Assembly (NCBI GenBank): GCA_965369865.1
Contig: CBDURU010000001.1
Location: 48,406 to 112,405 of the forward strand
From: an uncultured bacterium
Lineage (GTDB): Bacteria; JAJVIF01; JAPKYR01
Direction: 5' to 3'
DNA: 64,000 nt
In this document: piece by piece, positions 13,803 to 57,035 of the stretch
Layout of the letters: every line of letters starts with the position of its first letter
How positions within the stretch are numbered: position 1 is the first letter of the stretch
Position numbers and translations under genes: made by a program
The notes under the pieces: model-generated
The model's database searches: none
What the model saw: the letters and a program-made list of their open reading frames with translations, nothing else
Told to the model about the DNA's origin: nothing

Positions 13803-13918
13803 GATATTAGATTTACGTCGGCAAGCACGTTCGACCCGAAGATTTTCAAGGCGTGCGGGATGGAGATGTCTTACTGAGCAGGTTTGCGATCAATGAGTGT
13901 TCGTGTATTTCTCTGACC

Positions 13919-39151: not shown

Positions 39152-41659
39152 TCAAGGATTGTACCTCGCGACGAAAATATTAAAACCTGCGCCGGAAGTC
39201 AGTAATGTCTCGTATGGTTCGCCCTCTCCGAATAAGGCAAAGCCTGAGAACCTACCTGTAACTACTGTAGAGTCATCCGAAAGTGCTGTGATCCCATAAC
39301 CATAATCTCTTTTGCTCCCGCCGGCACGTTTCACCCATACGAGCATTCCATCCGGGTCATACCTCGCAACGAAAACATCATAGTCCCCGTCGGAAGTGAG
39401 CACGGTCTGGTTTGGATCACCCTTCCCGAATGTGGGTGAATCTTTGAACCCCCCTGACAAAACGGTCGAGTTGTCTGAAAGCGTTGTGATTCCATTACCC
39501 AAGCTCCAATCAGGATCGACAGCGCCTTTCGCCCAAGCAAGTGTTCCGTCCGGGTTGAATCGCGCGATAAAAATACCACCTGAACTTATGAAATTCAGCA
39601 CAGTCTCATTAGGTCCACCCTCTCCGAATGTGGCTGATCCTCCAGACCGACCTGTTACTACGGTGGAGTCGTTGGAAAGCGATGTTATTCCATAACCACG
39701 GTCAAAACCAATCCCTCCAGCACGTTTCGCCCACGCGAGTGTTCCGTCCTGGTTATACTGCGCGACGAAGATGTCATTTCCGTCAAAACCTCCATGGAAG
39801 GAAAAGAGCACAGTCTGATTCGTTTCGTCCTTCCCGAATGTGGCTGGTCCGATGTACGACCCTGTTACAACAGTCGAGTTGTCTGACAGGGCGGTAATTG
39901 CATAACCGATATCCCCTGGATATGTACTGCCGCCAGCGCTTTTTGCCCAGGCAAGCGTTCCGTCCGGATTGTACCTCGCAACGAAAATATTATCGTTATT
40001 TCCCCCTGAAGTGAGTTGTGTCTGATTTGGTTCACCCTCCCCGAATGTAGCTGATCCCCTGAAGTATCCTGTTATTACAGTCGAGTCATCTGAAAGCGCG
40101 GTAATTCCATAACCGATATCCCCTGGATATGTGCTGCCGCCAGCGCTTTTCGCCCATGCAAGCGTTCCATCCGGGTTATATCGCGCGACGAAAATATTAC
40201 AATTTTCTGAGGAAGTCAGTATGGTCTCATTCGCTTCACCCTTACCGAATGTGGTCCATCCTCTGAAACGCCCTGTTACCACGGTTGAGTCGTCCGAAAG
40301 CGATGTAATTCCATAACCCTCGTCCTCAACGCCCCCGCCAGCGCTTTTCGCCCATGCAAGTGTGCCGTCCGGGTTGTACCTTGCGACGAAAATATCCTGC
40401 AAGCTAACGGAAATCAGCACAGTCTGATTGGGTTCCCCTTTTCCAAAAATAGCTGTTGCGTAAAAAATGCCGGTTACTACAATCGAGTTGTCCGATAGTG
40501 TTGTGATTGCATAACCTTTTGCCATATCCCCGCCTGCGCTTTTCGCCCAGATCAGATTACCGTCTTCTTCCAAAGTAGTTCCATATTCGACCTGCCATGC
40601 ATCAATCTGCCCTGAAAATTCATCAACTTCGGTGTCAACTACCCGTATGAGTAATGGAGAATCATCAGCAGTGCCACCCAAATCATTTAAAATTGTTCCG
40701 GTATATTCTGTGCTGTTTTCCTCACCAGTAGATTGGGTTAATTCAACAACTCCGTTGAATAAACCAGGCGCTTCAACGGTGACTTTGTTGATAGTTGAAA
40801 TCCCCTGATGATCATACACTATAACCTTGATTGATTCAGACCCACCAGACTCAGGCCATGAGTCCATACTTGCATTAACAAAGTACGCCTCATTACAATT
40901 CGCTTCAGGAGGAAAGTCGTTCACCGGGTCGTCCCATGTGTCGATCTCCATCCAGCACGCATCGACCGCATAGCCGAATTTTAAATCCCCAGGCGGTACA
41001 TGAAGCCTTGCGCGACGGTGATCCTCCTCACCGGATTCTATCATACGCCGAGGATTTTCCCGGCCAAATGCGATGAATGGGTTTAAAGTTGCCGAGAAAT
41101 CATAGCCGATCGACATGATTCCAGGGAAGTATGTCAAAATTGGTGTATTTTCGTTGTACGGAAAATCGGTTGGGTTGAAAAGTGTCGTGAATCCAGCCGG
41201 ATTCATAATCCGGGGATTACTTCCATTGAAAGAGACCCTCTTACCGCTACCAGGGAAAGTATAGTCGGCATCGGTAATAAAAATAAACCGCATATCGAAT
41301 ACAGTGTATTGCGGGAGATCGGGTAGCGGGTGTTTCAATTTTATATCGCAGGAAAAATTATTGCTATCATAGATTATGAAATCGCTGAACCAGATGCAAT
41401 CAGGACACAGCTCTATGAAAGGCAGGATGTTCAGGTGCATCGCGAGATCGCGGTTCGGTATTACTTCGACTGTCTGCCGATCTTCGGATATGCTGACTTC
41501 GCCGACATTCAGGAGAATGCGGTTATCGCTGACAGTCGTCCGGTCATTGGGCTGGGGGGCGTTATCCGGGAGCAAGGCAGGATTCTCACCACCGGACGAG
41601 CAACCGATAACAATCAGCAATGTGATTGTGATTAGGAGTACCAGTGAATGCGCTTTCAT
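39152..41659 (-). CDS. Lipoprotein: conserved N-terminal domain (second subfamily) plus ~8 SBBP beta-propeller repeats
   Basis: The start is set at the ATG at 41659 (MKAHSLV...IVIGCSSG lipobox), with GGAGGG upstream. The N-domain is about 70 percent identical by eye to that of 56860..59304. The C-terminal half carries NIFVARYNPDGTLAWAKSAGG repeats. Confidence 0.85.
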   Translation of the reverse strand: MKAHSLVLLITITLLIVIGCSSGGENPALLPDNAPQPNDRTTVSDNRILLNVGEVSISEDRQTVEVIPNRDLAMHLNILPFIELCPDCIWFSDFIIYDSNNFSCDIKLKHPLPDLPQYTVFDMRFIFITDADYTFPGSGKRVSFNGSNPRIMNPAGFTTLFNPTDFPYNENTPILTYFPGIMSIGYDFSATLNPFIAFGRENPRRMIESGEEDHRRARLHVPPGDLKFGYAVDACWMEIDTWDDPVNDFPPEANCNEAYFVNASMDSWPESGGSESIKVIVYDHQGISTINKVTVEAPGLFNGVVELTQSTGEENSTEYTGTILNDLGGTADDSPLLIRVVDTEVDEFSGQIDAWQVEYGTTLEEDGNLIWAKSAGGDMAKGYAITTLSDNSIVVTGIFYATAIFGKGEPNQTVLISVSLQDIFVARYNPDGTLAWAKSAGGGVEDEGYGITSLSDDSTVVTGRFRGWTTFGKGEANETILTSSENCNIFVARYNPDGTLAWAKSAGGSTYPGDIGYGITALSDDSTVITGYFRGSATFGEGEPNQTQLTSGGNNDNIFVARYNPDGTLAWAKSAGGSTYPGDIGYAITALSDNSTVVTGSYIGPATFGKDETNQTVLFSFHGGFDGNDIFVAQYNQDGTLAWAKRAGGIGFDRGYGITSLSNDSTVVTGRSGGSATFGEGGPNETVLNFISSGGIFIARFNPDGTLAWAKGAVDPDWSLGNGITTLSDNSTVLSGGFKDSPTFGKGDPNQTVLTSDGDYDVFVARYDPDGMLVWVKRAGGSKRDYGYGITALSDDSTVVTGRFSGFALFGEGEPYETLLTSGAGFNIFVARYNP

Positions 41660-41842
41660 CCTGAAACCCTCCATTCTTAGGAAAAGGCATTTAAACTCGG
41701 GTACAATATTACACTAATGAATCAGAGTTTGAATAGAGATAAATTGTAGCCCAGGTTATTTTGGAAGTCAACCAAATTTAAGGGGGTCAGGATTTGAGTT
41801 TGAATCGTTGACAAGCACGTTCGACCCTAAGATTGGCTGGGA

Positions 41843-44137
41843 TTGGTAGAAAATTATGTCTCACTCGGCTTGTCAAGGCCATTCTTTAGGGTTTTAATTA
41901 ATTTACGTACATGTTATTATTTCATTCGTACAAGAACAGGGAATCCGGCTTCACATGGAGCCAACCCGCAGGGAGTCACAGAGATAGAAAAAGCAGGCGA
42001 AAATTCTACGATTAATCCGTTTTTTGTTGAAGAGCCGAGGATGGTATACGGTCCTGAGGCCGGCGACTGGCTGGAGCAATTCTGGCACCCTGAGCGACCC
42101 AATTATTATCTGCAGTTGTCGCAACCCCCGGATTATTACAGGGCACAGGAATGTTCAGTTTTTCTGCTGGTCCATGTAAAAGACATCTGGCCTCCAGGGG
42201 TGCTTATGGTCGGGGACAGGGGTATCCAACTGGATAGAATTATCGATGGTGAGTTGATCGTTGAGCCGTATCCCGGAGTGGCGGAAGGCGCTGGGATCTG
42301 GATTGATAATGAGCCCTGGGCCGAGGATGAATGGGACTCATGGGCGGACCCTAACATGGGATATCGCATCGCCGAGGACGCTAAACCCAGGGGGGATGAG
42401 TTTATAATAATATTTGAGATGGACGCGTTACTGGCTGATCCCGGCCTTGATGAGGTTAAGGTGCGTGTTACCGACTTCCACGAAAATTGGACAAGGACGG
42501 ATAATGTGCTGGACCAGCAGGGCGGTGAATATGTTGTACGCGACTTGATGTTCAGGGATAATAACAGGTATCCGGATGACAATGATCCCTGTTATTACCC
42601 TAACAATCAACCTCCGTACAGGAGAGTTGAATGCGACGGTTATGTAATGCCAAGGCCGGGCGGGACAACAGCCCTTGATGTGGTTGCGATCGTGTCATCT
42701 TATCATCCACCCGACAGTATCCCGGTCGATATTAGCGCACCTACTGACGAACCAGTGACTGGTGGTGGAGCGGAACAAGTAACTGCTCTATTGTACCGCC
42801 TGAATAAAAGCGCGTGTCCGAGTGAATGGCTGGAAATTTGGAGTGACAGCACGTGTGCCGGTGCTATTTACAGTTCATGTGTTGAAATATACTGCCGTTA
42901 TGCTACCGGGCGGGTATTCTATAATTGCCCTGAGGATCCACCGATGGTGGCTGCTACGGATAATGGGTACACCACAGTGTCATCACCTGCAAATCCTGTT
43001 GATTATTCGGAAACGCCGTTCTTGTATGTCAGCAGCAGCGATCACCTGATCGACGACCCAGGCGGGGATTATAAGGACTGGGCAAGTGCTATGGCGAGTG
43101 GTGTACAGATTAGTGGAAGTCCAATTCAGGATGCGAATATTTGGCACCATGCAGGTATGATTTTATCTGCTAGTTACGGAAATGGATTCCGGGGTTTATA
43201 TGAAACTGAACTCGAGCAAAGTCCTGAATGGACTTTTGGGGGTGGGTGCAGTATAGAGAACCAGTATTACGCAAACTATAAAGACAACGTATTAACTTAT
43301 GGGTTTGAATTGGTTAAAGCTGAATGTGATGGATATGAAGCGCACTATGCAATTCAAAGCCAGGCAGATGTAATGTTTGTTCTTGCGCACGGTGAAGTGT
43401 TCGGTAGGCCTGCAGGAAGGAACATGTATGGTGAATGGGAGGAATCAAATACCCATGCAATTCCTCCAGGTACAGATATACTTGGGAATCCATGGGTCGA
43501 TCAACCGTATTTATTCTATTTCCCGGAAAGCCCGTTACCACCTTATGACGAAACTGGTAATAAGAATGATATTATTGTCTGGGATGATTGGCCTGGTTAT
43601 CTTGGGCCAAATCCAGATTCGGATTGGCTTGTCTTGATGGCGTGCCTTCAGCTTGGTGATCCCAGTACTCTTGCCCAATGTAATGCCTGGCTTTCATATC
43701 GCCACCTTATCCAAAATTCGAGTATCAGATCCGTATTGGGCCATAGGGATTTACATAATGGTGGTGCATATTCTGTAGGGATTGGTAATAATCCATTGCA
43801 TCCAAATCTTTTTACTGGGACTTGGGAGGATGCTTTTATTGTTATGTTCTGCGGTTATCTGGAGTCAGGAGACTATCAACCTCACCCAACGGAACGGTGG
43901 TTGAATTACGATCCATCAGTTGAATATGGGGCAATGTGTTACATGGAAGCTGCATGGTTGTATTATTATTACTATGAAACAATGTGCGGCCCGTGGGAGG
44001 AAGATCATGTTTTCCAGGATACTACTACAATTATTACTGCAAGTGCAGTTGATTTGAATTATCGATACATTTTAGAAAAAGTACGTACTGCCGGTATACC
44101 AGAAGATGATTGGCCGGTAAGAATACATGTACTTTGA
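41843..44137 (+). CDS. A1: uncharacterised protein, the full-length member of the 'A' family (shared N-module, unique middle, C-terminal His/Cys caspase-fold-like module)
   Basis: It is a 764-aa ORF. The real start may be the ATG at 42041 (MVYGPEAGDW). The N-module at 42127-42513 is shared with A2/A3. The putative dyad is VLAHGE (His codon 43388-43390) and LVLMACLQLG (Cys codon 43643-43645). No signal peptide is evident. Confidence 0.7.
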   Translation: MVENYVSLGLSRPFFRVLINLRTCYYFIRTRTGNPASHGANPQGVTEIEKAGENSTINPFFVEEPRMVYGPEAGDWLEQFWHPERPNYYLQLSQPPDYYRAQECSVFLLVHVKDIWPPGVLMVGDRGIQLDRIIDGELIVEPYPGVAEGAGIWIDNEPWAEDEWDSWADPNMGYRIAEDAKPRGDEFIIIFEMDALLADPGLDEVKVRVTDFHENWTRTDNVLDQQGGEYVVRDLMFRDNNRYPDDNDPCYYPNNQPPYRRVECDGYVMPRPGGTTALDVVAIVSSYHPPDSIPVDISAPTDEPVTGGGAEQVTALLYRLNKSACPSEWLEIWSDSTCAGAIYSSCVEIYCRYATGRVFYNCPEDPPMVAATDNGYTTVSSPANPVDYSETPFLYVSSSDHLIDDPGGDYKDWASAMASGVQISGSPIQDANIWHHAGMILSASYGNGFRGLYETELEQSPEWTFGGGCSIENQYYANYKDNVLTYGFELVKAECDGYEAHYAIQSQADVMFVLAHGEVFGRPAGRNMYGEWEESNTHAIPPGTDILGNPWVDQPYLFYFPESPLPPYDETGNKNDIIVWDDWPGYLGPNPDSDWLVLMACLQLGDPSTLAQCNAWLSYRHLIQNSSIRSVLGHRDLHNGGAYSVGIGNNPLHPNLFTGTWEDAFIVMFCGYLESGDYQPHPTERWLNYDPSVEYGAMCYMEAAWLYYYYYETMCGPWEEDHVFQDTTTIITASAVDLNYRYILEKVRTAGIPEDDWPVRIHVL
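42127..42513 (+). repeat. Shared N-module of the A family, copy in A1
   Basis: 42181-42496 matches 45448-45763 with no mismatch that I can find by eye (316 nt). Flanking identity is slightly lower. Confidence 0.9.
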
Positions 44138-44158
44138 GGACCTGAGAGGAGTATAATC

Positions 44159-45316
44159 ATGAATATTATTAAAATATACAAACTATTAGTAATTAATGTT
44201 TATACATTATTATTCCTTACTTTAACTTCAACAGCTCATTCCACAACAATACTAAGTGAAATAAGTACGGAGAATATGCAACCGTATAGAATTATCCCGG
44301 GAACTATTTCCAATGAATTCTGGATAGTAGGCCAGGCAAAAGGATTAGGATTGCTTGTGGAAGATCAACAGGGAGCCTGGTCATTTACACAGTATCCCAT
44401 AGGCTCAGTATGGGATGCAGTGGGACCTGATAATAATGGCAGGATTTGGTGTTCAAGTTTTGTAACGGGAATTGGAACAGCCATACAAGTTTTTAATTGC
44501 AATACAAAGGATGTAATCCAAAATGTTAATATTGGCCCTGATTATGTAACGACAGGAATTACACTTTCTATTAATGAGGACTATGTGTATCTACTGGGTT
44601 GGGATTGGCCAAGATTTGGTGAACCGGGAAGTTGGGTATCCAGTTTCGGTCACCCAAATGCAGGCATTGTATGGGAAATTAATATATCTTCATTTGAAGT
44701 TTCCCCAGATATTGGTGTTGTTGGAGTATTTCCGTATACAATATATTACGCTGGAAGCCAAGAAACAGATAAACTCCTAGTTTACACTCTCGCACGGGAT
44801 GATGTAGGTCGAGAAGGTGGGGAATGTATTGACATCCTGGCAGTGGATAGAAGTTTCCCACGCTTAGGAGGGCTCCCGGCATGCTTTACAAATGAATATC
44901 TATACTGCAATGACCTAGTAAAATGGTCAGATGAAGATCCGCTTATAGCACTGTGTAATCGTTCGGTAGATAATATGGGGGATAGTGAAGATTTCTCCGA
45001 TGGATTATGGATCATCGATACAGAATTAGAAGAAGTTGTTCAGACATACCGTATATATGACATCGCGGACAGGATCAGGGGAGTTCAGCATCTTTGTGTG
45101 AGTGAAGTCCGTCCGGGGATCGCATATATGAGTCTTGGTTTTGGTGGTCTTGACGCAGAGACCGCGGTTTTTGATATGGCTACCGGACAGGTTATCGAGC
45201 ACATTCAAACCGGTCTTGTTTTCACTCCGGAATTTATTTATGAATTACCAGATGGCAGACTTATTGTCACTGGCGGCAGGACAAAAAATATAGTCATCAT
45301 CGACCCGTTACATTGA
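44159..45316 (+). CDS. B1: exported YVTN-like beta-propeller protein (divergent member of the 'B' family)
   Basis: It starts 21 nt after the A1 stop, with GAGAGGAG upstream. It has the N-terminal signal/anchor LLVINVYTLLFLTLTSTAHS and blade-like repeats ending ...LPDGRLIVTGGRTKNIVIIDP. Confidence 0.7.
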   Translation: MNIIKIYKLLVINVYTLLFLTLTSTAHSTTILSEISTENMQPYRIIPGTISNEFWIVGQAKGLGLLVEDQQGAWSFTQYPIGSVWDAVGPDNNGRIWCSSFVTGIGTAIQVFNCNTKDVIQNVNIGPDYVTTGITLSINEDYVYLLGWDWPRFGEPGSWVSSFGHPNAGIVWEINISSFEVSPDIGVVGVFPYTIYYAGSQETDKLLVYTLARDDVGREGGECIDILAVDRSFPRLGGLPACFTNEYLYCNDLVKWSDEDPLIALCNRSVDNMGDSEDFSDGLWIIDTELEEVVQTYRIYDIADRIRGVQHLCVSEVRPGIAYMSLGFGGLDAETAVFDMATGQVIEHIQTGLVFTPEFIYELPDGRLIVTGGRTKNIVIIDPLH

Positions 45317-45382
45317 TTCGTTGCAGTCCCTGAATGGCTCGAGCAGTTCTGGCATCCTGAGTTACCCAATTATTATCTGCAG

Positions 45383-47131
45383 TTGACGCAGCACCCGGAT
45401 TATTACAGGGCACAGGATTGTTCAGTTTTTCTGCTGGTCCATGCAAAAGACATCTGGCCTCCAGGGGTGCTTATGGTCGGGGACAGGGGTATCCAACTGG
45501 ATAGAATTATCGATGGTGAGTTGATCGTTGAGCCGTATCCCGGAGTGGCGGAAGGCGCTGGGATCTGGATTGATAATGAGCCCTGGGCCGAGGATGAATG
45601 GGACTCATGGGCGGACCCTAACATGGGATATCGCATCGCCGAGGACGCTAAACCCAGGGGGGATGAGTTTATAATAATATTTGAGATGGACGCGTTACTG
45701 GCTGATCCCGGCCTTGATGAGGTTAAGGTGCGTGTTACCGACTTCCACGAAAATTGGACAAGGTCGGATAATGTGCTTGAGGACATTGATGGCCTTTATA
45801 CTGTAACTAAAGTGGGGATAATCGAACAAAATTACCAGGGAACGACTGTTCTGGCGGACTTCTGCGGCGTGCCGGTATGTAATAGAGTAGCCGGTGAATA
45901 CACTCTTGATTATGTAGCTCAGGTAGTAACTTCGGATTACATTGAACCGCCTGACTTCTTATGGAGCGTTATAAATTCTCCACTGCATGAGGGCAGTGTC
46001 GGCTTAGTTGAAATAAATGTTCCCATTTATCGTCTGGATCCTGAATTGGACAGGTATGAAATATACAATGAACTGTTTCCCCCTCATGGCTATCAATGCA
46101 ATGTTCATTATTATTCTCGCGGGCTGGAATTATTAATCCCTCCCGGCGAAGTCGCCCCGGTTGTCATTGATGACTGGCGAGAATCGGTTCAGCCAATGCA
46201 CGAGGAAGACTATGGTACATGTCCGCATCTGTATTTGAGCGATAGGGACCATTTACTTGGTATCGAAGGTGATCCTAATAATGATCAATGGAAAGACTAT
46301 TCAATAGCAATGGCAATTGACTCAGATATCCGTGATTTCTATGACAAAGCTCTTAATTCAATGTATTTTGGTAGCTCTGAAAGAGGGATATTTTATGGCT
46401 GCAATGTTTTGATAGGTGATAAGGACAGCTATGCTGAAGATGTACTCGACAGCGGTGTTGAAAGGCTTAAAATCGATGTTGAAGAAAAGGAGGCGGATAT
46501 TGGTATTCAAAGTCGAGGTGACGCATATTTTGTAATTGGGCATAGTTATGAAACAGGTAATCCTCCCGGGCAAGTACAAGGGATTTGGGAGTTTATACCT
46601 TCGGCAAACCATAACGCCCCTGGCGATTGGAAGTATGTTGTTTCTAGAGATGATTTTGCAACCAGTGGAGATCTCGATCGGGAAGTAAACTGGTTGATTT
46701 CTCAAGCTTGTCATTTACTTGGTCCATCTTCGTATCAATATTGGCAGGCTCTAATACCGAATCAGTTGGATGCAATTTGTGGTTTTCGTTGCGCCAATAT
46801 CAGGGAACTTCTGCCGGAATTTAGCAAGCTTGAAGAAGAAGGACCAAGCGCTTTCTTCGGAGGTTTTTCAACCAGGTTAACCAGTAATGAGGGGGCTCAT
46901 GAAAGTTATTGGAAGTACGATAATCAAATCCCTAATGATCGCGCCATTATTGCGTGGATGGAGAACGCATGCGAATGGGCACGCATATTGAAATCAGAAG
47001 TTCGTAACCGTGAATACATGATGGAGAATGCTGCCGCAATTGATGAACTATACATTTATGAAATCGAATGGACTTCAAGCCCTTATGATTGGCCGCTCTT
47101 TGGTGAAAGCTTATACATTGTCAGATACTAG
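45383..47131 (+). CDS. A2: 'A'-family paralog lacking its own canonical 5' end
   Basis: Homology to A1 begins at ~45329, upstream of any in-frame start. The first candidates are TTG at 45383 and ATG at 45473. The putative dyad is FVIGHS (His 46541-46543) and LISQACHLLG (Cys 46709-46711). Confidence 0.65.
   Translation: MTQHPDYYRAQDCSVFLLVHAKDIWPPGVLMVGDRGIQLDRIIDGELIVEPYPGVAEGAGIWIDNEPWAEDEWDSWADPNMGYRIAEDAKPRGDEFIIIFEMDALLADPGLDEVKVRVTDFHENWTRSDNVLEDIDGLYTVTKVGIIEQNYQGTTVLADFCGVPVCNRVAGEYTLDYVAQVVTSDYIEPPDFLWSVINSPLHEGSVGLVEINVPIYRLDPELDRYEIYNELFPPHGYQCNVHYYSRGLELLIPPGEVAPVVIDDWRESVQPMHEEDYGTCPHLYLSDRDHLLGIEGDPNNDQWKDYSIAMAIDSDIRDFYDKALNSMYFGSSERGIFYGCNVLIGDKDSYAEDVLDSGVERLKIDVEEKEADIGIQSRGDAYFVIGHSYETGNPPGQVQGIWEFIPSANHNAPGDWKYVVSRDDFATSGDLDREVNWLISQACHLLGPSSYQYWQALIPNQLDAICGFRCANIRELLPEFSKLEEEGPSAFFGGFSTRLTSNEGAHESYWKYDNQIPNDRAIIAWMENACEWARILKSEVRNREYMMENAAAIDELYIYEIEWTSSPYDWPLFGESLYIVRY
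45394..45780 (+). repeat. Shared N-module of the A family, copy in A2
   Basis: See the A1 copy. The offset is a constant 3267 nt with no indels. Confidence 0.9.
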
Positions 47132-47147
47132 TCCTTTGAGGTGAACT

Positions 47148-48320
47148 ATGAATCAAAGATTAAAAAAAGCAGTCAAACTGGGCCTTGTGCTTATGGCTGG
47201 CATACTGGGTATTTGCGCTCTTGTTTGGGCTGCAAGTCAGTCGTTCTCGTATGGACAACCGGGCGCAGTGCAAGCTTTGTTGAATGATGACGGTAGTCGA
47301 CTGTATGTTTCGTACTACAGAGACAACAAAGTTGTAGAGATAGATACGGAAACGATGCAACAGGTTCGTCAATTTCAAATCGAATGGCCGGCCTATATGG
47401 AGTTATCTGAGGATGAGTTATATTTGTATGCAATAAGCAGGGCTGTCACAGCCAGTATTAAAAGGATGCGCTTGTCTGACGGCAACATTGATCAGATAAT
47501 TCTGGAAGGTGATGTTATTTCGCTATCGTATGATCCTGACGGTAATCGTTTGTGGGTTGTTCACCGAACATGGCCAATGGATGGAGATGTAATGAATGGT
47601 CCAGCCCCCCCGCCATCGTATGCTGGAATACTGACGGAAATTGACACAACAGATTTTGCAATTTCACAAAATCTTGCTATTGAATCATATCCCATTTCGG
47701 TGTGGTATTCACAGTATTCCGATAAAGTTTATGTAATGCATGGCTTGGTCAGGACTGAACCAGCCGGTTTTGAGACGGAAGGGGGAGGTTTTGTCACAAC
47801 GGGAGTCGCGTTATTGTGCAACCCAATTACCATTTATGGCTTGGATCAGGATAGATTGTACTGTATTGGTGAGGTGATGGGCGGGTTCTACAATGATGAT
47901 GTAATGCCTGCACAATTGGATAAATGGGACGACGATGGGAGATATATGGCAGTTCCATCTTCATCATATGGAATCCCATCGTTTTCCATGCGAGTTATTG
48001 ACACATACGATGACTCAGTTGCATTTGATTTGATATTCCCGACTTATTTTGATTCTCCATTGCCGGTTAATTTCGTAAAGAAAGTTACCGGAAATACTGA
48101 TTTCTGGGTTATGGTAAGTGGAGATATACCGTATGAAAATTTACCGGAAGGAAGTTGGGTGGTTGTACGGGTTAATACCGATACGCTCGAGCATGAAATT
48201 TATACTATAGATCAAGTAAATGCGAGATTATTCGGTAATTTTGCTGTGTCGCCTGACGGCAATACTTTATATTTAACTGTTCCACACACCGGCGAAATCA
48301 TCGTCTGGTCGCCGGATTGA
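47148..48320 (+). CDS. B2: exported YVTN-like beta-propeller protein
   Basis: It starts 16 nt after the A2 stop, with GAGGTG upstream. It has the signal/anchor LGLVLMAGILGICALVWAA and YVTN-like blades (DGSRLYVSYYRDNKVVEIDTETMQ..., SPDGNTLYLTVPHTGEIIVWSPD). Confidence 0.75.
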   Translation: MNQRLKKAVKLGLVLMAGILGICALVWAASQSFSYGQPGAVQALLNDDGSRLYVSYYRDNKVVEIDTETMQQVRQFQIEWPAYMELSEDELYLYAISRAVTASIKRMRLSDGNIDQIILEGDVISLSYDPDGNRLWVVHRTWPMDGDVMNGPAPPPSYAGILTEIDTTDFAISQNLAIESYPISVWYSQYSDKVYVMHGLVRTEPAGFETEGGGFVTTGVALLCNPITIYGLDQDRLYCIGEVMGGFYNDDVMPAQLDKWDDDGRYMAVPSSSYGIPSFSMRVIDTYDDSVAFDLIFPTYFDSPLPVNFVKKVTGNTDFWVMVSGDIPYENLPEGSWVVVRVNTDTLEHEIYTIDQVNARLFGNFAVSPDGNTLYLTVPHTGEIIVWSPD

Positions 48321-50002
48321 TTGTTTTATCACTGGTGCTTATGGTCGGGGACAGGGGTATCCAACTGGATAGAATTATCGATGGCGAGTTGATCATTGAG
48401 CCATATCCCGGAGTGGCGGAAGGCGCTGGGATCTGGATTGATAATGAGCCTTGGGCCGAGGATGAATGGGACTCATGGGCGGACCCTCACATGGAATATC
48501 GCATCGCCGAGGACGCTAAACCCAGGGGGGATGAGTTTATTATAATTATTGCTATGGACGCTTTACTTTCTGATCCCGGTCTTGAGGAGGTTAAGGTGCG
48601 TGTTACCGACTTCCACGAAAATTGGACAAGGACGGATAATTTGCTGGAGGACATTGATGGCCTTTATACTGTAACTGAAGTGGGGATAATCGAACAAAAT
48701 TACCAGGGAACGACTGTTCTGGCGGACTTCTGCAGCGTGCCTGTATGTGATAGAGTAGCTGGGATATACACTCTTGATTATGTAGCTCAGGTTGTAACAT
48801 CGGATTACATTGAACCACCTGATTTCTTATGGAGCGTTATAAATTCTCCAACGCATGAGGGCAGTGCTGGTTTAGCGGAAATAAATGTACCAATTTATCG
48901 TCTGGACCCTGAATTGGACAGGTATGAAATATACAATGAACTCTTTCCCCCTCATGGCTATCAATGCAATGTTCATTATTATTCTCGCGGGTTGGAATTA
49001 TTAATTCCTCCCGGTGAAGTCGCCCCGGTTGTCATTGATTTCTGGCGGTATTCTGTTCAACCAATGCACGAGGAAGACTATGATACCTGTCCGCATCTGT
49101 ATTTGAGCGATAGGGACCATTTAATTGGTCAGGAGGGTGATTTTGATGAAGATAGTTGGAAAGATTTCTCTATTGCCGTAGCAAACGATACAGAACTATG
49201 GCTCACATATAAACACGTAATTGACTACGCATGGTTTGGTTCAAGTGAGCGAGGTGGATTCCTCCCTATTTCCTGTGATCCGGACAAAGGTTTTAAACAG
49301 GATTATACAGTTGATGTTCTTGATTGCGGTGTTGAAAGAGTCCAGATTGATGTAGAGACTAAAACAGCTGATATTGGGATCCAAAGCAGAGGGGATGCAT
49401 ATTTCATATTTAGCCATGGTTGGCCACCTCCAATGATTGGGTATGAGCAATTAACACAGATTACCAGTCTAAGTCCTTTCCCTAATCCTGATCCGAATCT
49501 TCCTGATCGAATACCATTATCTGATTGGAAATATGTAAGTGGTCTTGCAACAGAGGTTGACTGGTTAATTTGCTCTGCATGCTTCCTTCTAAACGACGCA
49601 TCTTATCAAATATGGCAGCAATTACTTATCCCCAATTCGGTTGATGGGATCTGTGGCTTTAAGGATTTCAATTTTCGTAACATGTTGCCATTACATAGCT
49701 ATCCTAATCATCCAGGGCAAGAATTTTATCAAGCGTTTTCTGAGCGTCTTACAGACTATGAAGGCCCACATCATTATTTGTGGGGGTGTCAACCATCTTC
49801 AGTTCCAGCAGTTACTGCTTGGATGGAGAATGCATGTGTTTGGGCGATGCATATTTCAGCTGGATTTCATCCCGGGCAAGCCTGGCATGGTCTTATGTCC
49901 TGCGCGGCAGTTGATGGTGAATACCGTTATGTCCTGCGTACTCGTCGTCCCGATTGTTGGTGGGAACCGGATCCCTCATTTGAAATAAATGTCTTGCATT
50001 GA
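48317..50002 (+). CDS. A3: 'A'-family paralog, further 5'-truncated
   Basis: Homology to A1/A2 begins only at 48335 (..VLMVGDRGIQL). Candidate starts are TTG at 48317, which overlaps the B2 stop, or ATG at 48341. The putative dyad is FIFSHG (His 49415-49417) and LICSACFLL (Cys 49580-49582). Confidence 0.65.
   Translation: MIVLSLVLMVGDRGIQLDRIIDGELIIEPYPGVAEGAGIWIDNEPWAEDEWDSWADPHMEYRIAEDAKPRGDEFIIIIAMDALLSDPGLEEVKVRVTDFHENWTRTDNLLEDIDGLYTVTEVGIIEQNYQGTTVLADFCSVPVCDRVAGIYTLDYVAQVVTSDYIEPPDFLWSVINSPTHEGSAGLAEINVPIYRLDPELDRYEIYNELFPPHGYQCNVHYYSRGLELLIPPGEVAPVVIDFWRYSVQPMHEEDYDTCPHLYLSDRDHLIGQEGDFDEDSWKDFSIAVANDTELWLTYKHVIDYAWFGSSERGGFLPISCDPDKGFKQDYTVDVLDCGVERVQIDVETKTADIGIQSRGDAYFIFSHGWPPPMIGYEQLTQITSLSPFPNPDPNLPDRIPLSDWKYVSGLATEVDWLICSACFLLNDASYQIWQQLLIPNSVDGICGFKDFNFRNMLPLHSYPNHPGQEFYQAFSERLTDYEGPHHYLWGCQPSSVPAVTAWMENACVWAMHISAGFHPGQAWHGLMSCAAVDGEYRYVLRTRRPDCWWEPDPSFEINVLH
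48335..48650 (+). repeat. Shared N-module of the A family, 5'-truncated copy in A3
   Basis: It aligns with 42200-42515 at a constant offset of 6135 nt. I count roughly 15-20 mismatches by eye. Confidence 0.85.
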
Positions 50003-50016
50003 TTTTGGAGATCACA

Positions 50017-51162
50017 ATGAAAACAAAAACATTCATAATCTTAGGTATAGTAATCACTGCAATTGTTGTTGGCGGAATTCTGTATGAAATAACGATGAAT
50101 CCTGGAATAATCGCAAGCAGTAACGGCTATTATTACGGTCTTTCTAATCCTGTTACAGCAGCGATCAACTCAAACGGCGACCACCTGTATGTCTCATTTC
50201 CTTCCCATAACAAGGTTTTGGAAATAGATATCCCAAGCATGCAGGAACTCAGGCGATTTGATATAGATGATGCAGGATACCTTCATCTGGATCAGAGTGA
50301 AAATTTACTCTACTGTATTTCTTCCGGGTATCCCAGCTACCTAAACAGGATCAATTTATCTTCGGGACAAACTGAGCGGATTCAAATAACTGCGCTGGCT
50401 ACTGACTTCTGTTTCCATCCGGATGGACAAACGATCTGGGTGATAAGTCAAACGTGGCCCGGGGAAGGAGAATGGTATGTGCCTTCTGAAGCATACAAGC
50501 ATCCAGAGAGTGGTATGATTACTGAAGTGGATGTTCAGAATTTTGAGATTATTCAATCTGCTACAATAAAGCCGTTACCGGTTTGTATTATGTACTCATC
50601 ATATACTGAGATGTTGTATATCTGGCATGCTTATACTTCAGTTGAAAGCGAACCAGGACAAAATTACATTACTCGTAATGGTAATGTTATTTACGAAACT
50701 GACCCGTCTAGGTTGAATCAAGGTCGTCACTTTATTACAGGTCCTGAAATAGGCCTTCCGGGAGGTCCAAGGGTTGAATTATGGTCAGATGACGGAAGGT
50801 ACCTTGCAGTTCCCAGTCCCGCAATAGGCGAGCCGCCACACTCATTAATGGTATTTGACCTTGAGTCATGGGATTATGCAAGTGAAATTTCAGTTTTAAT
50901 GGGCAATGATCTACCGTTTGGCACTCGTTTTTTACATGTTGTACCGAACCAAAATATCATCTGGGCAACCGGTTTCGGAGGATTCTCAGAGAATCCTCTT
51001 GATAGACCTGTTATCAGAATTAATAGAGTAACAGAAGAAATTGAAGTTTTTCCTGTACATGGAGTTCCTCGATGGGGTGATTTCACTGTGTCTCCTGATG
51101 GCTCAACGCTTTACTTGACCAGCCCTAACACTAATGAAATCATCGTCTGGTCGCCGGATTGA
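50017..51162 (+). CDS. B3: exported YVTN-like beta-propeller protein
   Basis: ATG at 50017 with GGAG 6 nt upstream (the track start is TTG at 49999). It has the anchor FIILGIVITAIVVGGIL and ends ...SPDGSTLYLTSPNTNEIIVWSPD. Confidence 0.75.
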   Translation: MKTKTFIILGIVITAIVVGGILYEITMNPGIIASSNGYYYGLSNPVTAAINSNGDHLYVSFPSHNKVLEIDIPSMQELRRFDIDDAGYLHLDQSENLLYCISSGYPSYLNRINLSSGQTERIQITALATDFCFHPDGQTIWVISQTWPGEGEWYVPSEAYKHPESGMITEVDVQNFEIIQSATIKPLPVCIMYSSYTEMLYIWHAYTSVESEPGQNYITRNGNVIYETDPSRLNQGRHFITGPEIGLPGGPRVELWSDDGRYLAVPSPAIGEPPHSLMVFDLESWDYASEISVLMGNDLPFGTRFLHVVPNQNIIWATGFGGFSENPLDRPVIRINRVTEEIEVFPVHGVPRWGDFTVSPDGSTLYLTSPNTNEIIVWSPD

Positions 51163-51212
51163 TCGTCACAGGCGGCGAGAGCGAAAAAATCCTCGTCATC
51201 GATCCGACGTAG
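51162..51212 (+). pseudogene. Relic of an ancestral last beta-strand of the B family, located after the B3 stop
   Basis: It translates as IVTGGESEKILVIDPT*. Compare the B1 C-terminus IVTGGRTKNIVIIDPLH*. Confidence 0.45.
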
Positions 51213-51296: not shown

Positions 51297-52463
51297 ATGC
51301 GAAAACATGTACGTCTGATAGTTATCGTTTTATCCGCTATGATTTGCATAACAGGCATTTATGCAATCGTTAAAGCCACACGAGAATTTTATTCCTATGG
51401 GCAGCAGGGGGCAACGGACATCGAAATTACAAATAATGGTGAACTGCTATATGTTACATATTTTGAAGATAACGCCGTCGTGGAGATCGATGCAAATACA
51501 ATGTTAGAGGTTAGAAGATTTTCGGTTCCCATGCCAACGACAATTTATCTTGATAGCGACGAAGAATATATTTACGCAAGTAGCGATACCTGGCCGGGTG
51601 GAGTATATAGAATACAATTGATCGATGGTCAATCTTCTTCCTTAACGCTGGAAGGCGAAATATATGATTTGGCAATAGATAAACAAAATAACAGATTATG
51701 GGCTGTTCATTTAATTTGGCCTCAGTTTGATGAGTTATTTAGTGAGACAGAGGCATATCTCCATCCGAATACTGGGAGGTTGACTGAGATAGACCTGGAT
51801 AATTTCCAGGTAACCAGAGAGCTTGAAATAGAGCCATTGCCTACAGCGGTATGGTATTCACAATATAGTAATAAAGTATATGTTGTTCATCATTTACGTA
51901 GATTTGAGCCATATGACCCGTCATCTTACGGGTCAATGGAGAGTATGAAATATTTCGGTAATCCCATTACCATTTATGGATTGGATCAGGAAAATTTACA
52001 CAAAATTGGGGAGAATTTTGTCGGTCATCATGATAAGTCTTTAATTATACCATACCATATTGGTAATTGGGACGATAGTGGTCGTTATCTCGTTGTTCCA
52101 AGCCCCATATCTGGCCGTCCCGAATTTTCTTTGGAAGTTATTGATACAGTTGATGATTCAATTGAAAATTATATTTCATTTCCTGGTTATCCTCCAGGTG
52201 ATCTTATGACAACAAAATATATTCAAAAGGTACCAAATATTGATGTATTATGGTCTACAATTTTATTCGGTCGTCCTGATCCTGAAATTTATGAAGGAAA
52301 TAGATTCATTGCTCGGGTAAATACAGTAACATTAGAATATGAGATATTCACGATTGATAATGTTAATTATAGCTTCGGAGATTTTGCTGTGTCACCTGAC
52401 GGCAATACTTTATATTTAACTGTTCCCAATACCGGCGAAATCATCGTCTGGTCTCCGGATTAA
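51297..52463 (+). CDS. B4: exported YVTN-like beta-propeller protein (no A gene in front)
   Basis: It has the anchor LIVIVLSAMICITGIYAIV. It is about 45 percent identical by eye to B2, and the last ~90 nt are nearly identical to B2. Confidence 0.75.
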   Translation: MRKHVRLIVIVLSAMICITGIYAIVKATREFYSYGQQGATDIEITNNGELLYVTYFEDNAVVEIDANTMLEVRRFSVPMPTTIYLDSDEEYIYASSDTWPGGVYRIQLIDGQSSSLTLEGEIYDLAIDKQNNRLWAVHLIWPQFDELFSETEAYLHPNTGRLTEIDLDNFQVTRELEIEPLPTAVWYSQYSNKVYVVHHLRRFEPYDPSSYGSMESMKYFGNPITIYGLDQENLHKIGENFVGHHDKSLIIPYHIGNWDDSGRYLVVPSPISGRPEFSLEVIDTVDDSIENYISFPGYPPGDLMTTKYIQKVPNIDVLWSTILFGRPDPEIYEGNRFIARVNTVTLEYEIFTIDNVNYSFGDFAVSPDGNTLYLTVPNTGEIIVWSPD

Positions 52464-52545
52464 TTGTTTTATCACAGGGGCTTATGGAACCCATCGGCAG
52501 ACCCCTCTCCGGTGCCCCACACATCCCCTTGTTAAATTAAAAATG

Positions 52546-52835
52546 GACCCATATCACATAGATATGGGCCTACCGATTAACAAAAATTATATCCTGAAAA
52601 AAATTAACAATCCATCCGTAGAACTGCACGGCAGTGCGTCTCAAAGAAACTCCCGATGAATCACGGGTTGAAACGCGCGATAAAAATATCGTCAAGTCCG
52701 GCCGAGGTCAGCAATGTCTCGTTGGATTCGTAAAGCCCGAATATGGCTGATTCATTGAAATAGCCTGCCACAACCATCGAATCGTCCGACAGTACTTCGA
52801 TCCCATATCCTTCATCCCTGAAAGATCCGCCCGCC
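52546..52835. repeat. Direct repeat, copy 1 (terminator hairpin plus the 3' end of an SBBP gene)
   Basis: GACCCATATCACATAGATATGGGCCTACCGATTAACAAAA...CACGGCAGTGCGTCTCAA...GTACTTCGATCCC is shared with 56768-57035. Copy 1 has a ~25-nt insertion after ATATCC. Confidence 0.85.
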
Positions 52836-52838
52836 AGG
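52661..52838 (-). pseudogene. 3'-terminal fragment (~59 codons) of an SBBP lipoprotein gene, a duplicate of the 3' end of 56860..59304
   Basis: The reverse-strand translation is ...DEGYGIEVLSDDSMVVAGYFNESAIFGLYESNETLLTSAGLDDIFIARFNP*. It has no upstream body and is nearly identical at the nt level to 56860-57035. Confidence 0.8.
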
Positions 52839-52840
52839 AT

Positions 52841-53008
52841 ATGTATGAAGATAACAAGAGCAACTGGGCTATTGAAGTCTTGAAATGAGGTGTAGAGTTA
52901 GTTGAAGTCGAGGTTGAAGATAAAACGGCTGATATAGGTTTCCAAAGCAGGGGAGATGTTTACTTCCTGATTGCACATGGTTCTACGATAGAGGTTGAAG
53001 GAAATTAG
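52841..53008 (+). pseudogene. Relic of a fourth 'A'-family gene (region around the putative catalytic His) with an in-frame TGA
   Basis: It translates as ..YEDNKSNWAIEVLK*GVELVEVEVEDKTADIGFQSRGDVYFLIAHGSTIEVEGN*. Compare A3 ..VLDCGVERVQIDVETKTADIGIQSRGDAYFIFSHG. The TGA sits where A3 has Cys and A2 has Ser. Confidence 0.7.
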
Positions 53009-53202
53009 GTTGTAGATTTGGTCTTCGAAGCTTGCCTGGTTGTCGGGTTTCGAATGCATGTATCCACCCTCTCGCCTTTCCCGTTCGGTTTATACTGGAC
53101 ATTATTTTCATTTCTCGCCTGAATGCAGGTGCCCATTGTATTTTGCGCCGGTTGCATGCTATTCTATATATTCATTCACGTTTCATTTTGGAGGTTTTTG
53201 GT

Positions 53203-56200
53203 ATGGCTCTCTCAATCCGCTCAATGCTCATAACTGCATTATTGGTGGTGGTTATTTCCGGATGTTCCGGGCATGACGCTCCATCTGCTCCGAACATCAC
53301 AGGTGAAACAGGAACTGGTCAAGAATTAACGGACACTGTCCGGGATGGTGCCGTGTTTCAAGGTAACCACTACTGCATGCTTTACAACGTTATAAACATT
53401 GATATGTCAGACCCTGACGATGTAAAGATGGAAGTAATTCCGGTACGACTTGGAGAAATCCACCTGAACATTCTGAAGCTTCTGGAAGTTGGCCCGTGTA
53501 CTGACTGCTTCAAGCTGGTTGGATTTAACCTTATCGAACCTGGTGTTCTGGATGTCGATATCGAAATCACGCACCCGTTCGACAATCTTGATTACTCTGT
53601 TTTCGATGTTCGCGGGATCATGATGTTCAACGGATCCCATTTATTCCCCGCATCAGGGATGTCAATTTCAGATCCGGCTCTCGGGGATGGCGCACTCATG
53701 AATGCCGATGGTTATACAGCACTTTACAACGGATCGACATTCGGACAGGCCGACGATCTGATGACATATTTCCCCGGCAAATTCTCGACACCAACAATTC
53801 CAGACGCGTATTTAAACGGTTACATCCGTCACAACACGGAAATCACACGTAATGCTTTCTTCGCTGGTGATTCGGTCACTCAAACTTACAGGTTAAAGAT
53901 GCCCACAACCCAGTTCGTACTCGGCTACGCGGTCGACGCTAACTGGTGGACGCCAATTGAAACACCAGTCGATGATCCGCTTACCGATTTCGACCTGGAT
54001 GCGAATTGCCCCGAGCCGTGGAAACTGAACAATGACATTACTGATATCGGTGACGGGCTTACAACTGACGGTGGGGAGGCCAAACTATCGATATTCGTTT
54101 TCGACTGGCAGGGAAAAGAATCGCACGCTGCTCCCGTCATTGAATGTCCGGAATTGTTTGATGGCACAAAGGAGATGGTTTTTAAAGCGGACGGTGACGG
54201 ATATACTCAATATGACATCACGCTGACAAACGAACTCCTTGCCGATGTCGGTGAGTACCTGTGCCTTGCTAAAGTCGAGGACAATGATAACGCCGGCGCT
54301 CCGGACTGGCTTGATCTGAGCGCGTACAGGACTGTAACCCTGACAGTTGTGGAGCAAATGCATCCCCCGATAGCGATGGCTGATTTCGTTCCCGATCCGC
54401 CCGTACTGGGTGAAGATGTGACATTTTCGGATGACGGCTCCTACGATCCGGACGGCGGAATTCTGACCAAATTCGAATGGGACTGGGAAAACGACGGTAT
54501 CTTCGATGAGGAGGGTGCTGAGGTAACACATTCGTGGGACGTCGCGAGTGTTTATTATGTGCAGTACAGGGTCACCGACGATGAAGGTGAGACAAATACG
54601 CTTGATGAACCGCTTGAAATATCCTTTGGATTTGTCCCGCCGGTAGCGATAGCCGAATTCGAGGCTCTGGAATTTGCCATTTGTGAACCGGTGTATTTTT
54701 ACGGTAGCGAGTCTTATGACCCGGATGGCGGTGAAATTGTCAAGTACGAATGGGACTGGGAAAACGACGGCACGTTCGATGATGAAGGCGCCAATTTGCA
54801 ACACATTTGGTATATCCCCGACACATATGATGTCCAGTTAAGAGTAACCGATGACGAGGGTCAGACTGATATCCTTGACGAACCCCTTCAAGTGAGCCGA
54901 GTCCAGTGTGAACCTGTCGCAATCGCGTCGGCTGATAAACTCGAGGTTGGAAAATGGGAACCAATAACATTCACTGGCGAGGATTCACACGATAATGATT
55001 GTGACGGTGAGTCAATTGTTAAATGGGAGTGGGACTGGGAAAACGACGGTACGTTCGACGAAACCGGCATGGTCAAATCCCATTCTTACAATGCGTACGG
55101 CTACCACGATGTGATGCTTAGGGTAACCGACAACGAGGGCAGTTCGGATACTCTTTCAACAGCATTACAAATAAATGTCATCGAGGATACCTGGGTAAAC
55201 ACTTGGGGAGGAGGAAGTAACGACTACGTTTATGACGCGACAACTGATGGCCTAACCAACATCTATTCGTGTGGAGTATTCAGTGGTACTGGCGTTGATT
55301 TTGATCCCGGCGAGGGAGAGTTGTTAAAGGATTCAAATGGTGATGTTGACTCTTATCTGTGCAAGTACAATTCGCAGGGAGAACTTCTCTGGGTCGGGAC
55401 ATGGGGGAGCAGCGGTTACGATCCGGCAAATTCGATTGATTGCGCCTGGGAAGCCGGTGGCAAGTTTATATATGTGACGGGATCATTCACAGGCACAGTT
55501 GATTTCGATCCGGGATCATCCGTATACAACAGAACTACTGTCGGAGATACAGACGCTTTTCTCAGCAAATTCGACCTTGACGGCAATCACATCTGGACCA
55601 CTTCCTGGGGTGGCAACATGTGGACTCATGGCGTCAATGTAACCAGGGTCGTTGACCCGGAGGGTGTTGCGGTATGTGGTGATTTCTACGGCACAACGGA
55701 GTTTGATCCTGGCGATGGCTGGTGGGAACGGACGTCCCATGGTGGATGCGATTTCTATTTATCCTGGTTTGACACTGATGGAAATTTCGAATACGGGTGG
55801 GCCTGGGGAGGCACACACGATGATTATGCATACGGTCTGGATTGCGATTACGAGGGTTGTGTTTACATGACCGGCACATTTAGGAAATATGTTGATTTCT
55901 TCCCCGGGTCGTCCGGTCATAAGTATACGTCAAATGGCGAAGGCGATATCTTCATACTGAAGCGTAAAAAAGTTGGTGATCCCTGGCTATGGAACCACGG
56001 CATGGCTGTTATCGGCGGGACCGGCGATGATGTCGGCTATGATCTTTGCATTCAAAGTCTGGATGTTTACGTGACCGGATATTTTGGGGATTCCGTTGAT
56101 TTTGATGCTTCGGCCGGCGGTAATGATATCAAAATCGCAAATGGGAAACAGGATGCATTTTTAACCAGGTATTCTCTTACTTTGGATTATGACTGGTCTC

Positions 56201-56790: not shown

Positions 56791-57035
56791 CCTACCGATT
56801 AACAAAATTTATATCCGTATAACATCACGGCAGTGCGTCTCAACGAGACTCCCGATGAATCATGGATTGAAACGCGCGATAAAAATATCGTCAAGTCCGG
56901 CCGAGGTCAGCAATGTCTCGTTGGATTCGTAAAGCCCGAATATGGCTGATTCATTGAAATAGCCTGCCACAACCATCGAATCGTCCGACAGTACTTCGAT
57001 CCCGAATCCTTCATCCCTATAGGAACCGCCTGCGC
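56768..57035. repeat. Direct repeat, copy 2 (functional gene end plus terminator)
   Basis: It has the same sequence as copy 1 with a few substitutions, including synonymous changes in the last codons (CCA/CCG Pro, AAT/AAC Asn). Confidence 0.85.

Follow-up and report, generated by a model that had tools for sequence, protein, structure and literature searches.

We analysed a window of 64,000 nucleotides (nt) from an uncultured bacterium (GenBank assembly GCA_965369865.1, contig CBDURU010000001.1, positions 48,406 to 112,405 of the forward strand; unless a related locus is named, coordinates below are those of the window). Its + strand carries, from 41.8 to 53.1 kb, a compact array of genes which all lie on the same strand and form tandem two-gene cassettes, each made of a gene that we call A and a gene that we call B, in the order A1-B1-A2-B2-A3-B3-(B remnant)-B4-(A remnant). 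In its layout the array resembles the known orphan-cassette arrays, and it is built from two very rare and unannotated protein families. Every A is closely followed by a B, after a gap of 13-55 nt or with an overlap of a few bases, in all the loci for which we had DNA. An earlier note, made from the letters of the sequence without database searches, had pointed to a mosaic structure of the A genes; what goes beyond this first reading is the 5' truncation of all the A copies, the co-variation of each A with its cognate B, and the orphan-cassette anatomy of the array. The features of the array are listed in Table 1, where N-block, Mid and C-terminal denote the three modules of the A genes.

Table 1. 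Features of the A/B array (ORF, open reading frame)
Feature	Coordinates	Strand	Description
A1	41843..44137	+	5'-truncated copy of a large lipoprotein gene; Mid and C-terminal modules of type I
A1 starts	ORF from TTG 41843; internal ATG 42206	+	tblastn homology to full-length relatives from about 41942-41969
Shared front block, A1 copy	42065..42513	+	Ungapped, 97.1% identical to 45332-45780; exact core 42178-42496
End of front block, A1 copy		+	Conserved motif ...VKVRVTDFHENWTR/[ST]DN
Exact stretch, A1 copy	42178..42496	+	319 nt, equal to 45445-45763; synonymous divergence (dS) 0
B1	44159..45316	+	Secreted YVTN-type beta-propeller, B1 type; partner of A1; GGAG (Shine-Dalgarno-like) upstream
A2	Homology 45332..47131, ORF 45383-47131	+	5'-truncated; Mid and C-terminal modules of type III
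A2 starts	TTG 45383 or ATG 45473	+	GGGGTG before the ATG; homology from 15 nt past the B1 stop
Exact stretch, A2 copy	45445..45763	+	Second copy of the identical 319 nt
A2/A3 block, A2 side	45466..46296	+	831 nt matching 48334-49164, 91.9%, ungapped; N-block and Mid
End of A2/A3 block	near 46296	+	Close to the conserved P.LY.SD.DHL motif
B2	47148..48320	+	Secreted YVTN-type beta-propeller; partner of A2; 76% identical to the B following the A2-type copy of locus L001
A3	48334..50002	+	Most truncated copy; homology from 13 nt past the B2 stop; ATG 48341
A3 modules	N-block 48334-48648	+	N-block and Mid 92% identical to A2; own C-terminal module
B3	50017..51162	+	Secreted YVTN-type beta-propeller; partner of A3; ORF also readable from TTG 49999
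B1-type remnant	51165..51212	+	3' end, last 16 codons (VTGGESEKILVIDPT*), directly after the B3 stop
B4	51297..52463	+	Intact secreted beta-propeller; orphan, no intact A partner
B2/A3 junction repeat	52464..52487	+	TTGTTTTATCAC.GG.GCTTATGG, after B4
Pseudo-A4	52787..53083	+	Decayed fragment of an A C-terminal domain with in-frame stops; IGFQSRGDVYFLIAHG motif kept

Two of these features are what is left of vanished genes: the B1-type remnant marks a cassette deleted between B3 and B4, and the junction repeat after B4 shows where an A copy, now lost, began. The pseudo-A4 fragment runs into an over-extended ORF opened by a TTG (53032-56601), in which the true start of a PKD lipoprotein gene probably lies near 53200. 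The stop codon of B1 (TGA, 45314-45316) is in the frame of A2, 15 nt before the A2 homology, so that read-through would give a B1-A2 fusion; for B2 and A3, unlike B1 and A2, the reading frames differ. The GC skew of the + strand over the array (42000-50000) is +0.12 to +0.17, among the highest values of the window.

Two rare protein families

The full-length relatives of A (P0006-P0009, P0016, P0018, P0028, P0035, P0067 and others) are proteins of about 1000-1280 amino acids and bear the signal peptide and the lipobox ([LVI]-x-[GAS]-C) of bacterial lipoproteins, the lipobox being recognised by eye as LLCGC/SS in P0016, LIIGC/SG in P0035, LLSGC/K in P0067 and FLVCGC/Q in P0028. The copies of the window align to these relatives only from residue 412-431 or so of about 1100 (A1), 463 (A2) and 512 (A3). 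A tblastn search with seven full-length relatives detected neither the N-terminal 400 or so amino acids nor their signal peptide in the 64-kb window, where only unrelated lipoprotein signal peptides are found. This means that A1, A2 and A3 are all 5'-truncated and devoid of a signal peptide. Each truncated copy sets in close behind the stop of the B gene before it, at a depth which varies (residue 183 or so in the related loci L001 and L004; 463 and 512 in the window).

The family is rare: among 5.8 billion proteins, A2 matches only the three copies of the window and two metagenomic proteins, while a search with a profile found 85 members among 1.84 billion cluster representatives. The matches that belong to genomes come from a Lake Pavin sediment metagenome-assembled genome (MAG), labelled simply "bacterium", and from a Planctomycetota MAG. 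Neither A nor B was assigned to any family in Pfam, NCBIfam-style or PADLOC scans, B giving only sub-threshold noise (PD40 and InvH). The search of Pfam with 46 aligned members of the A family returned no family, and the sequence profiles of the family had no match in the PDB at E<=10.

An AlphaFold model of A2 built on a 10-sequence alignment was unusable (pLDDT 52), but the 46-sequence alignment gave a model with pLDDT 87 and pTM 0.82. In this predicted structure a beta-rich N-block is followed by a Mid beta-sandwich, in which conserved cysteines are found, and by an alpha/beta C-terminal domain of about 290 amino acids. Across 44 diverse members, S347, D350 and C413 (A2 numbering) are invariant, while H357 (89%), the glycine that follows it (82%), D275, G328 and M496-E497 are nearly so; according to DSSP, H357 and C413 come after beta-strands of the model. 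A Foldseek search of the model against the PDB and BFVD gave nothing significant (in the PDB, nothing at E<=0.001). Its top matches, PAD2 and PAD4 (E 0.04-0.2, TM 0.1; for PAD2, E=0.04 and TM 0.10), were treated as noise. The order His-Gly...Cys had suggested a clan CD peptidase of the caspase or gingipain kind; we dropped this idea, as the Foldseek search gave no significant match, the Pfam and PDB sequence searches were empty, and the 50 best PDB matches of Foldseek listed include no caspase or gingipain. We therefore describe the C-terminal domain of A as a putative Cys/His enzyme for which no similarity to a solved structure can be detected. Since the C-terminal modules of all 44-46 members align and share S347, D350, H357 and C413, their variation is a diversification within one fold.

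The B proteins, of about 390 amino acids, are complete and begin with a signal sequence. Taken singly, they do not reach the Pfam thresholds. The B profile, however, matches solved YVTN propellers, namely a surface-layer protein (1L0Q, E=1.8e-9) and the beta subunit of hydrazine synthase (5C2V_B, 1.5e-7), then Lp49 and, at 5e-4, YncE. This profile similarity places B in the YVTN family, and its distant database relatives are annotated as YVTN proteins and carry PF10282. A Shine-Dalgarno-like motif is clear for B1-B3 and weak for B4.

Recombination between the A genes

The earlier note had described a block of 316 nt identical in A1 and A2, with no mismatch even at synonymous sites. The identity is indeed exact, but the block is 3 nt longer, and synonymous divergence (dS, by the method of Nei and Gojobori, computed per module) is 0 in the N-block (62 synonymous sites). 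This exact stretch is the core of a front block of 449 nt whose 13 mismatches all fall in the flanks of the core; were they spread uniformly over the 449 sites, a clean run of 319 nt would be expected with P~1e-6. The N-block of A3 is 94.6% identical to that of A1 (17 mismatches, 8 of them synonymous), very near the 95 percent first noticed. There is no further copy of the front block in the 64-kb window. The second block of about 90% identity proposed for A2 and A3 is real as a similarity but is not separate: one continuous alignment of 831 nt (Table 1) covers the N-block and the Mid module. Past its end the identity of A2 and A3 falls to 45-65%, so that the two genes do diverge in the C-terminal module, as had been claimed; their C-terminal modules are 42% identical in amino acids. 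The remainder of A1 had been called unalignable with A2 and A3. This holds for the nucleotides, whereas the proteins align over their full length, with 23-30% identity and the same invariant residues.

We computed identity profiles of the A pairs in codon-aligned sliding windows and searched for breakpoints by the maximum chi-square method (max-chi2, 1000 permutations). The profiles are step functions. For A1/A2 and A1/A3 the breakpoint lies at about 42509, with a p-distance of 0.03-0.05 to the left and of 0.57-0.58 to the right; for A2/A3 it lies at about 46270-46296, with 0.07 to the left and 0.47 to the right (P<0.001 in all cases). The ends of the tracts coincide with motifs conserved throughout the family, VKVRV.D...NW.R[ST].N and P.LY.SD.D.L. 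Between A1 and A2, dS is 0.21 in the pre-block; it is 0.15 in the N-block for A1/A3 and A2/A3 and 0.24 in the Mid module for A2/A3. All the other module comparisons are saturated (proportion of synonymous differences 0.75-0.83). In the shared blocks omega, the ratio of nonsynonymous to synonymous divergence, is 0.18-0.28, which shows that these blocks evolve as coding sequence under purifying selection. Hence the mosaic structure put forward in the earlier note is confirmed, the uniform divergence that would have spoken against it being excluded by the sliding windows, the breakpoints and the dS values of the modules.

A second homogenised tract involves the B genes. The last 30 or so codons of B2 and B4, together with the 24 nt downstream (48231-48344 versus 52374-52487), are about 91% identical (88-93%), and their third positions are 79-85% identical, as against 25-45%, that is saturation, elsewhere in both genes. 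The 3' ends of B2 and B4 with the adjoining junction are thus a conversion tract like that of the front block.

Similar arrays exist in other genomes. Locus L001 contains a full-length A (1095 amino acids), a B, a shorter A that sets in at residue 183 immediately behind the B stop, and another B, which is followed by a 76-nt fragment of this same A 5' junction (13875-13950 of that locus, 96% identical). In L004 a B, an A truncated at residue 183 or so and a B are likewise followed by such a fragment (5424-5481, 90% identical), and the window has a similar one after B4. L002 consists of a B1-like gene, an A2-like copy which begins exactly at the motif NWRRTENIL (NWxRxxN) after the B stop, and a B2-like gene. 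L003 shows a full-length A, a B, a 152-amino-acid remnant of an A and an intact B. In both L001 and L003 the full-length A leads and the truncated copies trail. B genes are found intact where the A has decayed: in the window this holds for B4, accompanied by pseudo-A4, and in L003 for the second B, accompanied by the A remnant. Around this orphan unit of L003 (the A remnant and the second B) there is a direct repeat with 84% identity (12936-13099 versus 14589-14752), which repeats the opening 18 codons (MHPAFISIDPFHMLQFRS) of the ORF that contains the ispD gene further downstream and looks like the footprint of a tandem duplication or of an insertion.

In order to follow the history of each module, we drew up identity matrices for 11 A/B pairs from seven loci. 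The N-blocks group by genome: they are 92-100% identical within the window and 83% within L001, and only 27-69% between loci. For the Mid and C-terminal modules it is the type, and not the genome, that decides the grouping. A2 of the window, for instance, has the N-block of A1 (100%) and a C-terminal domain only 23% identical to that of A1; compared with the copy L001_A2, its N-block is 45% identical, its C-terminal domain 81% and its B 76%. The C-terminal domain and the B go together in the other comparisons too: 58% and 56% for A2 of the window and L002_A, 50% and 48% for A1 of the window and L007_A, 70% and 75% for L001_A1 and L005_A. Over the 11 cognate pairs, the similarity of the C-terminal domains and that of the B proteins are correlated with a Mantel r of 0.93 (P=1e-4). 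It follows from this correlation and from the grouping by type that each B is inherited and diversifies with the variable half of the A before it, as a single cassette. Old types of such cassettes, each comprising a Mid module, a C-terminal domain and a B, are passed on as units and are shared between genomes, while recent gene conversion or homologous recombination keeps the front blocks of A alike inside any one genome. Recombination is therefore what made the A genes mosaic. The preference of the earlier note for gene conversion or cassette exchange over duplication and drift is borne out by the sharp jump of dS from 0 to saturation and by these incongruent histories.

Possible roles of the cassettes

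The cassettes are probably stored orphan cassettes, exchangeable through homology arms. Each of them consists of a 5'-truncated copy of the lipoprotein gene A and, behind it, a complete gene for the secreted YVTN-type propeller B. The front block of A is likely to be the upstream arm; the homogenised 3' end of B with the junction, as the B2/B4 tract suggests, would be the downstream one. Through both arms, a cassette could be exchanged with a full-length expressed A copy or fused to it. We favour a store of cassettes because the depths of truncation vary and the truncated ends always abut a B stop, because L001 and L003 open with a full-length copy, because intact B genes outlive decayed A genes, and because the truncated copies lack a signal peptide while the conserved cysteines and the secreted partner suggest an extracytoplasmic protein.

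As to function, the C-terminal domain of A may act in the cell envelope as a Cys/His-dependent effector enzyme, and its cognate B may be a periplasmic protein that provides immunity to it or inhibits it. That A and B form a new polymorphic toxin/immunity system, made of an envelope effector enzyme and an immunity propeller, we infer only weakly and hold to be somewhat short of an even chance. Several traits of polymorphic toxins are present. The full-length relatives carry a lipoprotein signal, and past the motif VKVRV.D...NW.R[ST].N the modules of A vary, while the N-block is constant within a genome; a cognate and co-varying partner lies immediately downstream; and 5'-truncated fragments trail with their partners (A1-A3 and pseudo-A4 in the window; L001, L002, L003 and L004). 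The explanation as a whole, an orphan-cassette array resembling those of polymorphic toxins, seems to us evenly balanced between true and false. Its most specific form is a tentative possibility which we are inclined to doubt, namely a so far undescribed effector/immunity system of uncultured sediment bacteria, Planctomycetota MAGs included, with a lipoprotein scaffold, a Cys/His domain of new fold, a propeller antidote of the seven-blade type and swapped silent cassettes.

Several observations weigh against this explanation. Unrelated toxin folds do not alternate on one scaffold here, all the C-terminal modules being homologous. A full-length, signal-bearing A is absent from the 64-kb window, and the expression site is an assumption. 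A1 and A2 could be translated on their own from an internal ATG preceded by GGGGTG. With its 390 or so amino acids B is unusual for an immunity protein, and a diversified propeller might just as well serve for targeting or as a lectin subunit. The window contains no linked secretion or delivery apparatus, and Pfam and PADLOC gave no match to a toxin, immunity or defence family. The enzymatic activity of A is guessed from conserved residues only, since Foldseek finds no related structure. Lastly, the assembly could have slightly inflated the exact identity of 100%.

The closest parallel is with the orphan cdiA-CT/cdiI and rhs-CT/rhsI modules of contact-dependent growth inhibition (CDI) and Rhs systems, in which the displaced 3' ends are still homologous to the constant region and able to recombine with the full-length gene, and in which the immunity genes are kept (PMC4927057, which cites Poole 2011 and Koskiniemi 2014 for such arrays). 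As in those arrays, tandem same-strand 3' ends of an effector gene, truncated in 5', each precede a cognate partner gene; homology to the constant part persists in the truncated copies, the variable part begins at a short conserved motif, and the partner genes survive the decay of the effector fragments. The proteins of our array are nevertheless unrelated to those of CDI and Rhs and have no CdiA/FHA, Rhs/YD, VENN or PxxxxDPxGL element. Their scaffold is a lipoprotein, their variable C-terminal modules all belong to one homologous fold, and the partner is a secreted beta-propeller of about 390 amino acids instead of a small immunity protein; moreover no transposase or integrase lies between the cassettes and no full-length gene lies in the window.

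The SitA proteins of myxobacteria are lipoprotein toxins, mostly nucleases, which have cytoplasmic SitI immunity proteins and are delivered by TraAB-dependent outer-membrane exchange (PMC5562445, PMC8546572). Like A, they are polymorphic, lipoprotein-anchored proteins whose C-terminal module varies and whose genes adjoin a cognate gene. We found for the array no sequence similarity to them and no link to TraAB, and B, unlike SitI, is secreted. The MafB proteins of Neisseria reportedly have a signal peptide and a conserved N-terminal region, with promoterless alternative 3' cassettes downstream, each with its immunity gene, which can recombine into the expressed gene; their C-terminal domains are said to be of unrelated folds and their MafI immunity proteins to be small and cytoplasmic. 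The signal peptide, the conserved N-terminal region and the alternative 3' cassettes with a partner gene would be common to both, although the protein families differ.

Finally, the umbrella toxin particles of Streptomyces associate a polymorphic toxin with diversified propellers encoded nearby, which are lectin targeting subunits (PMC11062931, PMC13274773). The pairing of a polymorphic protein with diversified beta-propellers encoded nearby is the same as in our array, but the families are unrelated, the bacteria are Gram-positive, and truncated cassette arrays are not described there. As the propellers of these particles are targeting subunits, we do not take a role of B in immunity for granted.

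We considered four other explanations of the array. In the first, the exposed C-terminal half of the A lipoprotein would be switched with the help of silent cassettes, so as to escape phages, predators or recognition, and B would be a periplasmic chaperone, anchor or export factor. The pilE/pilS loci offer a precedent: 5'-truncated silent copies share blocks with the expression copy and are homogenised by gene conversion, and no cognate second gene accompanies them. The A copies, truncated in 5', without signal peptide and sharing a conserved recombination block, would suit such a surface variation; so would the lipoprotein nature of the full-length relatives, the wealth of surface lipoproteins with propeller or PKD domains in the genome of the window, and the conserved cysteines of the Mid module, which suggest an extracytoplasmic fold. 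Yet the invariant Ser, Asp and Cys and the nearly invariant His-Gly point to an enzyme instead of a purely antigenic surface, and intact B genes beside decayed A genes are hard to square with a dedicated chaperone. Furthermore, silent cassettes of the pilS and vls type hold variable segments only and no functional genes of their own, whereas every cassette of the array, unlike those of pilS, vls and msp2, brings a complete B with its own ribosome-binding site. We consider surface variation unlikely.

In the second, the cassettes would be paralogous pairs of an enzyme and its partner, each expressed independently, with A1-A3 as true short proteins that begin at the internal ATG; gene conversion between the tandem paralogs would have left the identical block as a side effect, without any role in switching. 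This agrees with the three intact A ORFs, with an omega of about 0.2 in the shared blocks, and with the existence in other metagenomes of several family members of 550-640 amino acids which start near the N-block. It also agrees with the Shine-Dalgarno-like GGGGTG found 4 nt ahead of the ATG of A1 and A2, which resembles the GAGGTG or GGAG ahead of B1-B3 and of other genes of the window; that of A3 (CTGGTG) is poorer. However, the truncation points differ between copies and genomes and always abut a B stop, which suggests displacement and not a defined isoform; a short A would have no signal peptide in spite of its conserved cysteines and of its secreted B; and the short copies trail a full-length one in L001 and L003. 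We consider stand-alone expression improbable.

The third explanation is an artefact of assembly, either a collapsed or consensus repeat or a tandem order resulting from a chimera of strains. An exact repeat of 319 nt does exceed the usual k-mer and read lengths, the contig is metagenomic, and a search for the A2 protein of the window on other contigs, as independent support for the assembly, found nothing on record. But the tandem copies are tied together by unique junctions, that from the B1 stop to the 5' end of A2 (45317-45444, 11 differences from A1) and that from the B2 stop to A3, and the assembler was able to keep apart single-nucleotide polymorphisms lying close together to the left and to the right of the block. 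A step from about 97% to about 40% identity is beyond what the collapse of a repeat can produce, and the homogenised 5' part, the diverged 3' part with its B, and the trailing truncated copies recur in the independent assemblies of L001-L004. We regard an artefact as very improbable. The last explanation, plain tandem duplication and drift with a much stronger constraint on the front block, might appeal to the family-wide conservation of the motif at the end of the block (VKVRV.D...NW.R), but it is already refuted, because within one gene pair dS jumps at a supported breakpoint from no change in 62 synonymous sites to saturation, and because the module histories are incongruent across genomes, the front block being less alike between them (45%) than the C-terminal domain (81%).

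If A and B were indeed a toxin and its immunity protein, they would enrich the known systems of bacterial antagonism with a lipoprotein delivery scaffold, with an effector of new fold and, in the secreted beta-propeller, with immunity proteins of a new class, in lineages which have no cultured representative and almost no annotated competition genes. Whatever their function, the array is a clean natural case of cassette exchange, with tracts ending at conserved motifs and an effector and a partner which diversify tightly together, and its cognate and non-cognate pairs lend themselves directly to the study of how specificity between proteins evolves. About 85 clusters of "hypothetical" proteins are united as one family, with a putative active site made of Ser347, Asp350, His357 and Cys413.

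Surroundings of the array

The window is chromosomal and encodes IspE, NuoH/I, a NiFe hydrogenase, a tryptophanase and many SBBP and PKD lipoproteins. In the flanks of the array we found no tRNA, integrase, transposase, reverse transcriptase or other mobile-element gene. The one inverted-repeat pair looks like chance, and consensus scans for promoters and terminators were uninformative (37 promoter-like sites for 29 expected). The 1558-amino-acid ORF at the start of the window (27-4703) had no NCBIfam match. The divergent gene upstream of the array (39152-41674, - strand) encodes a propeller of the DUF5122/SBBP type with internal tandem repeats of 198 nt, 64-84% identical; three further SBBP/delta-60 lipoprotein genes lie at 4873-6759, 25829-28402 and 56860-59304. 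Lastly, a gene of the - strand (34583-37552) encodes a 989-amino-acid protein which matches the TPR protein of the FxSxx-COOH system (E=4e-102) and, by its N-terminal part, a TIR-like FxsC domain. Situated in the stretch of lowest GC content in the window (0.39-0.42), this gene may be an acquired island.

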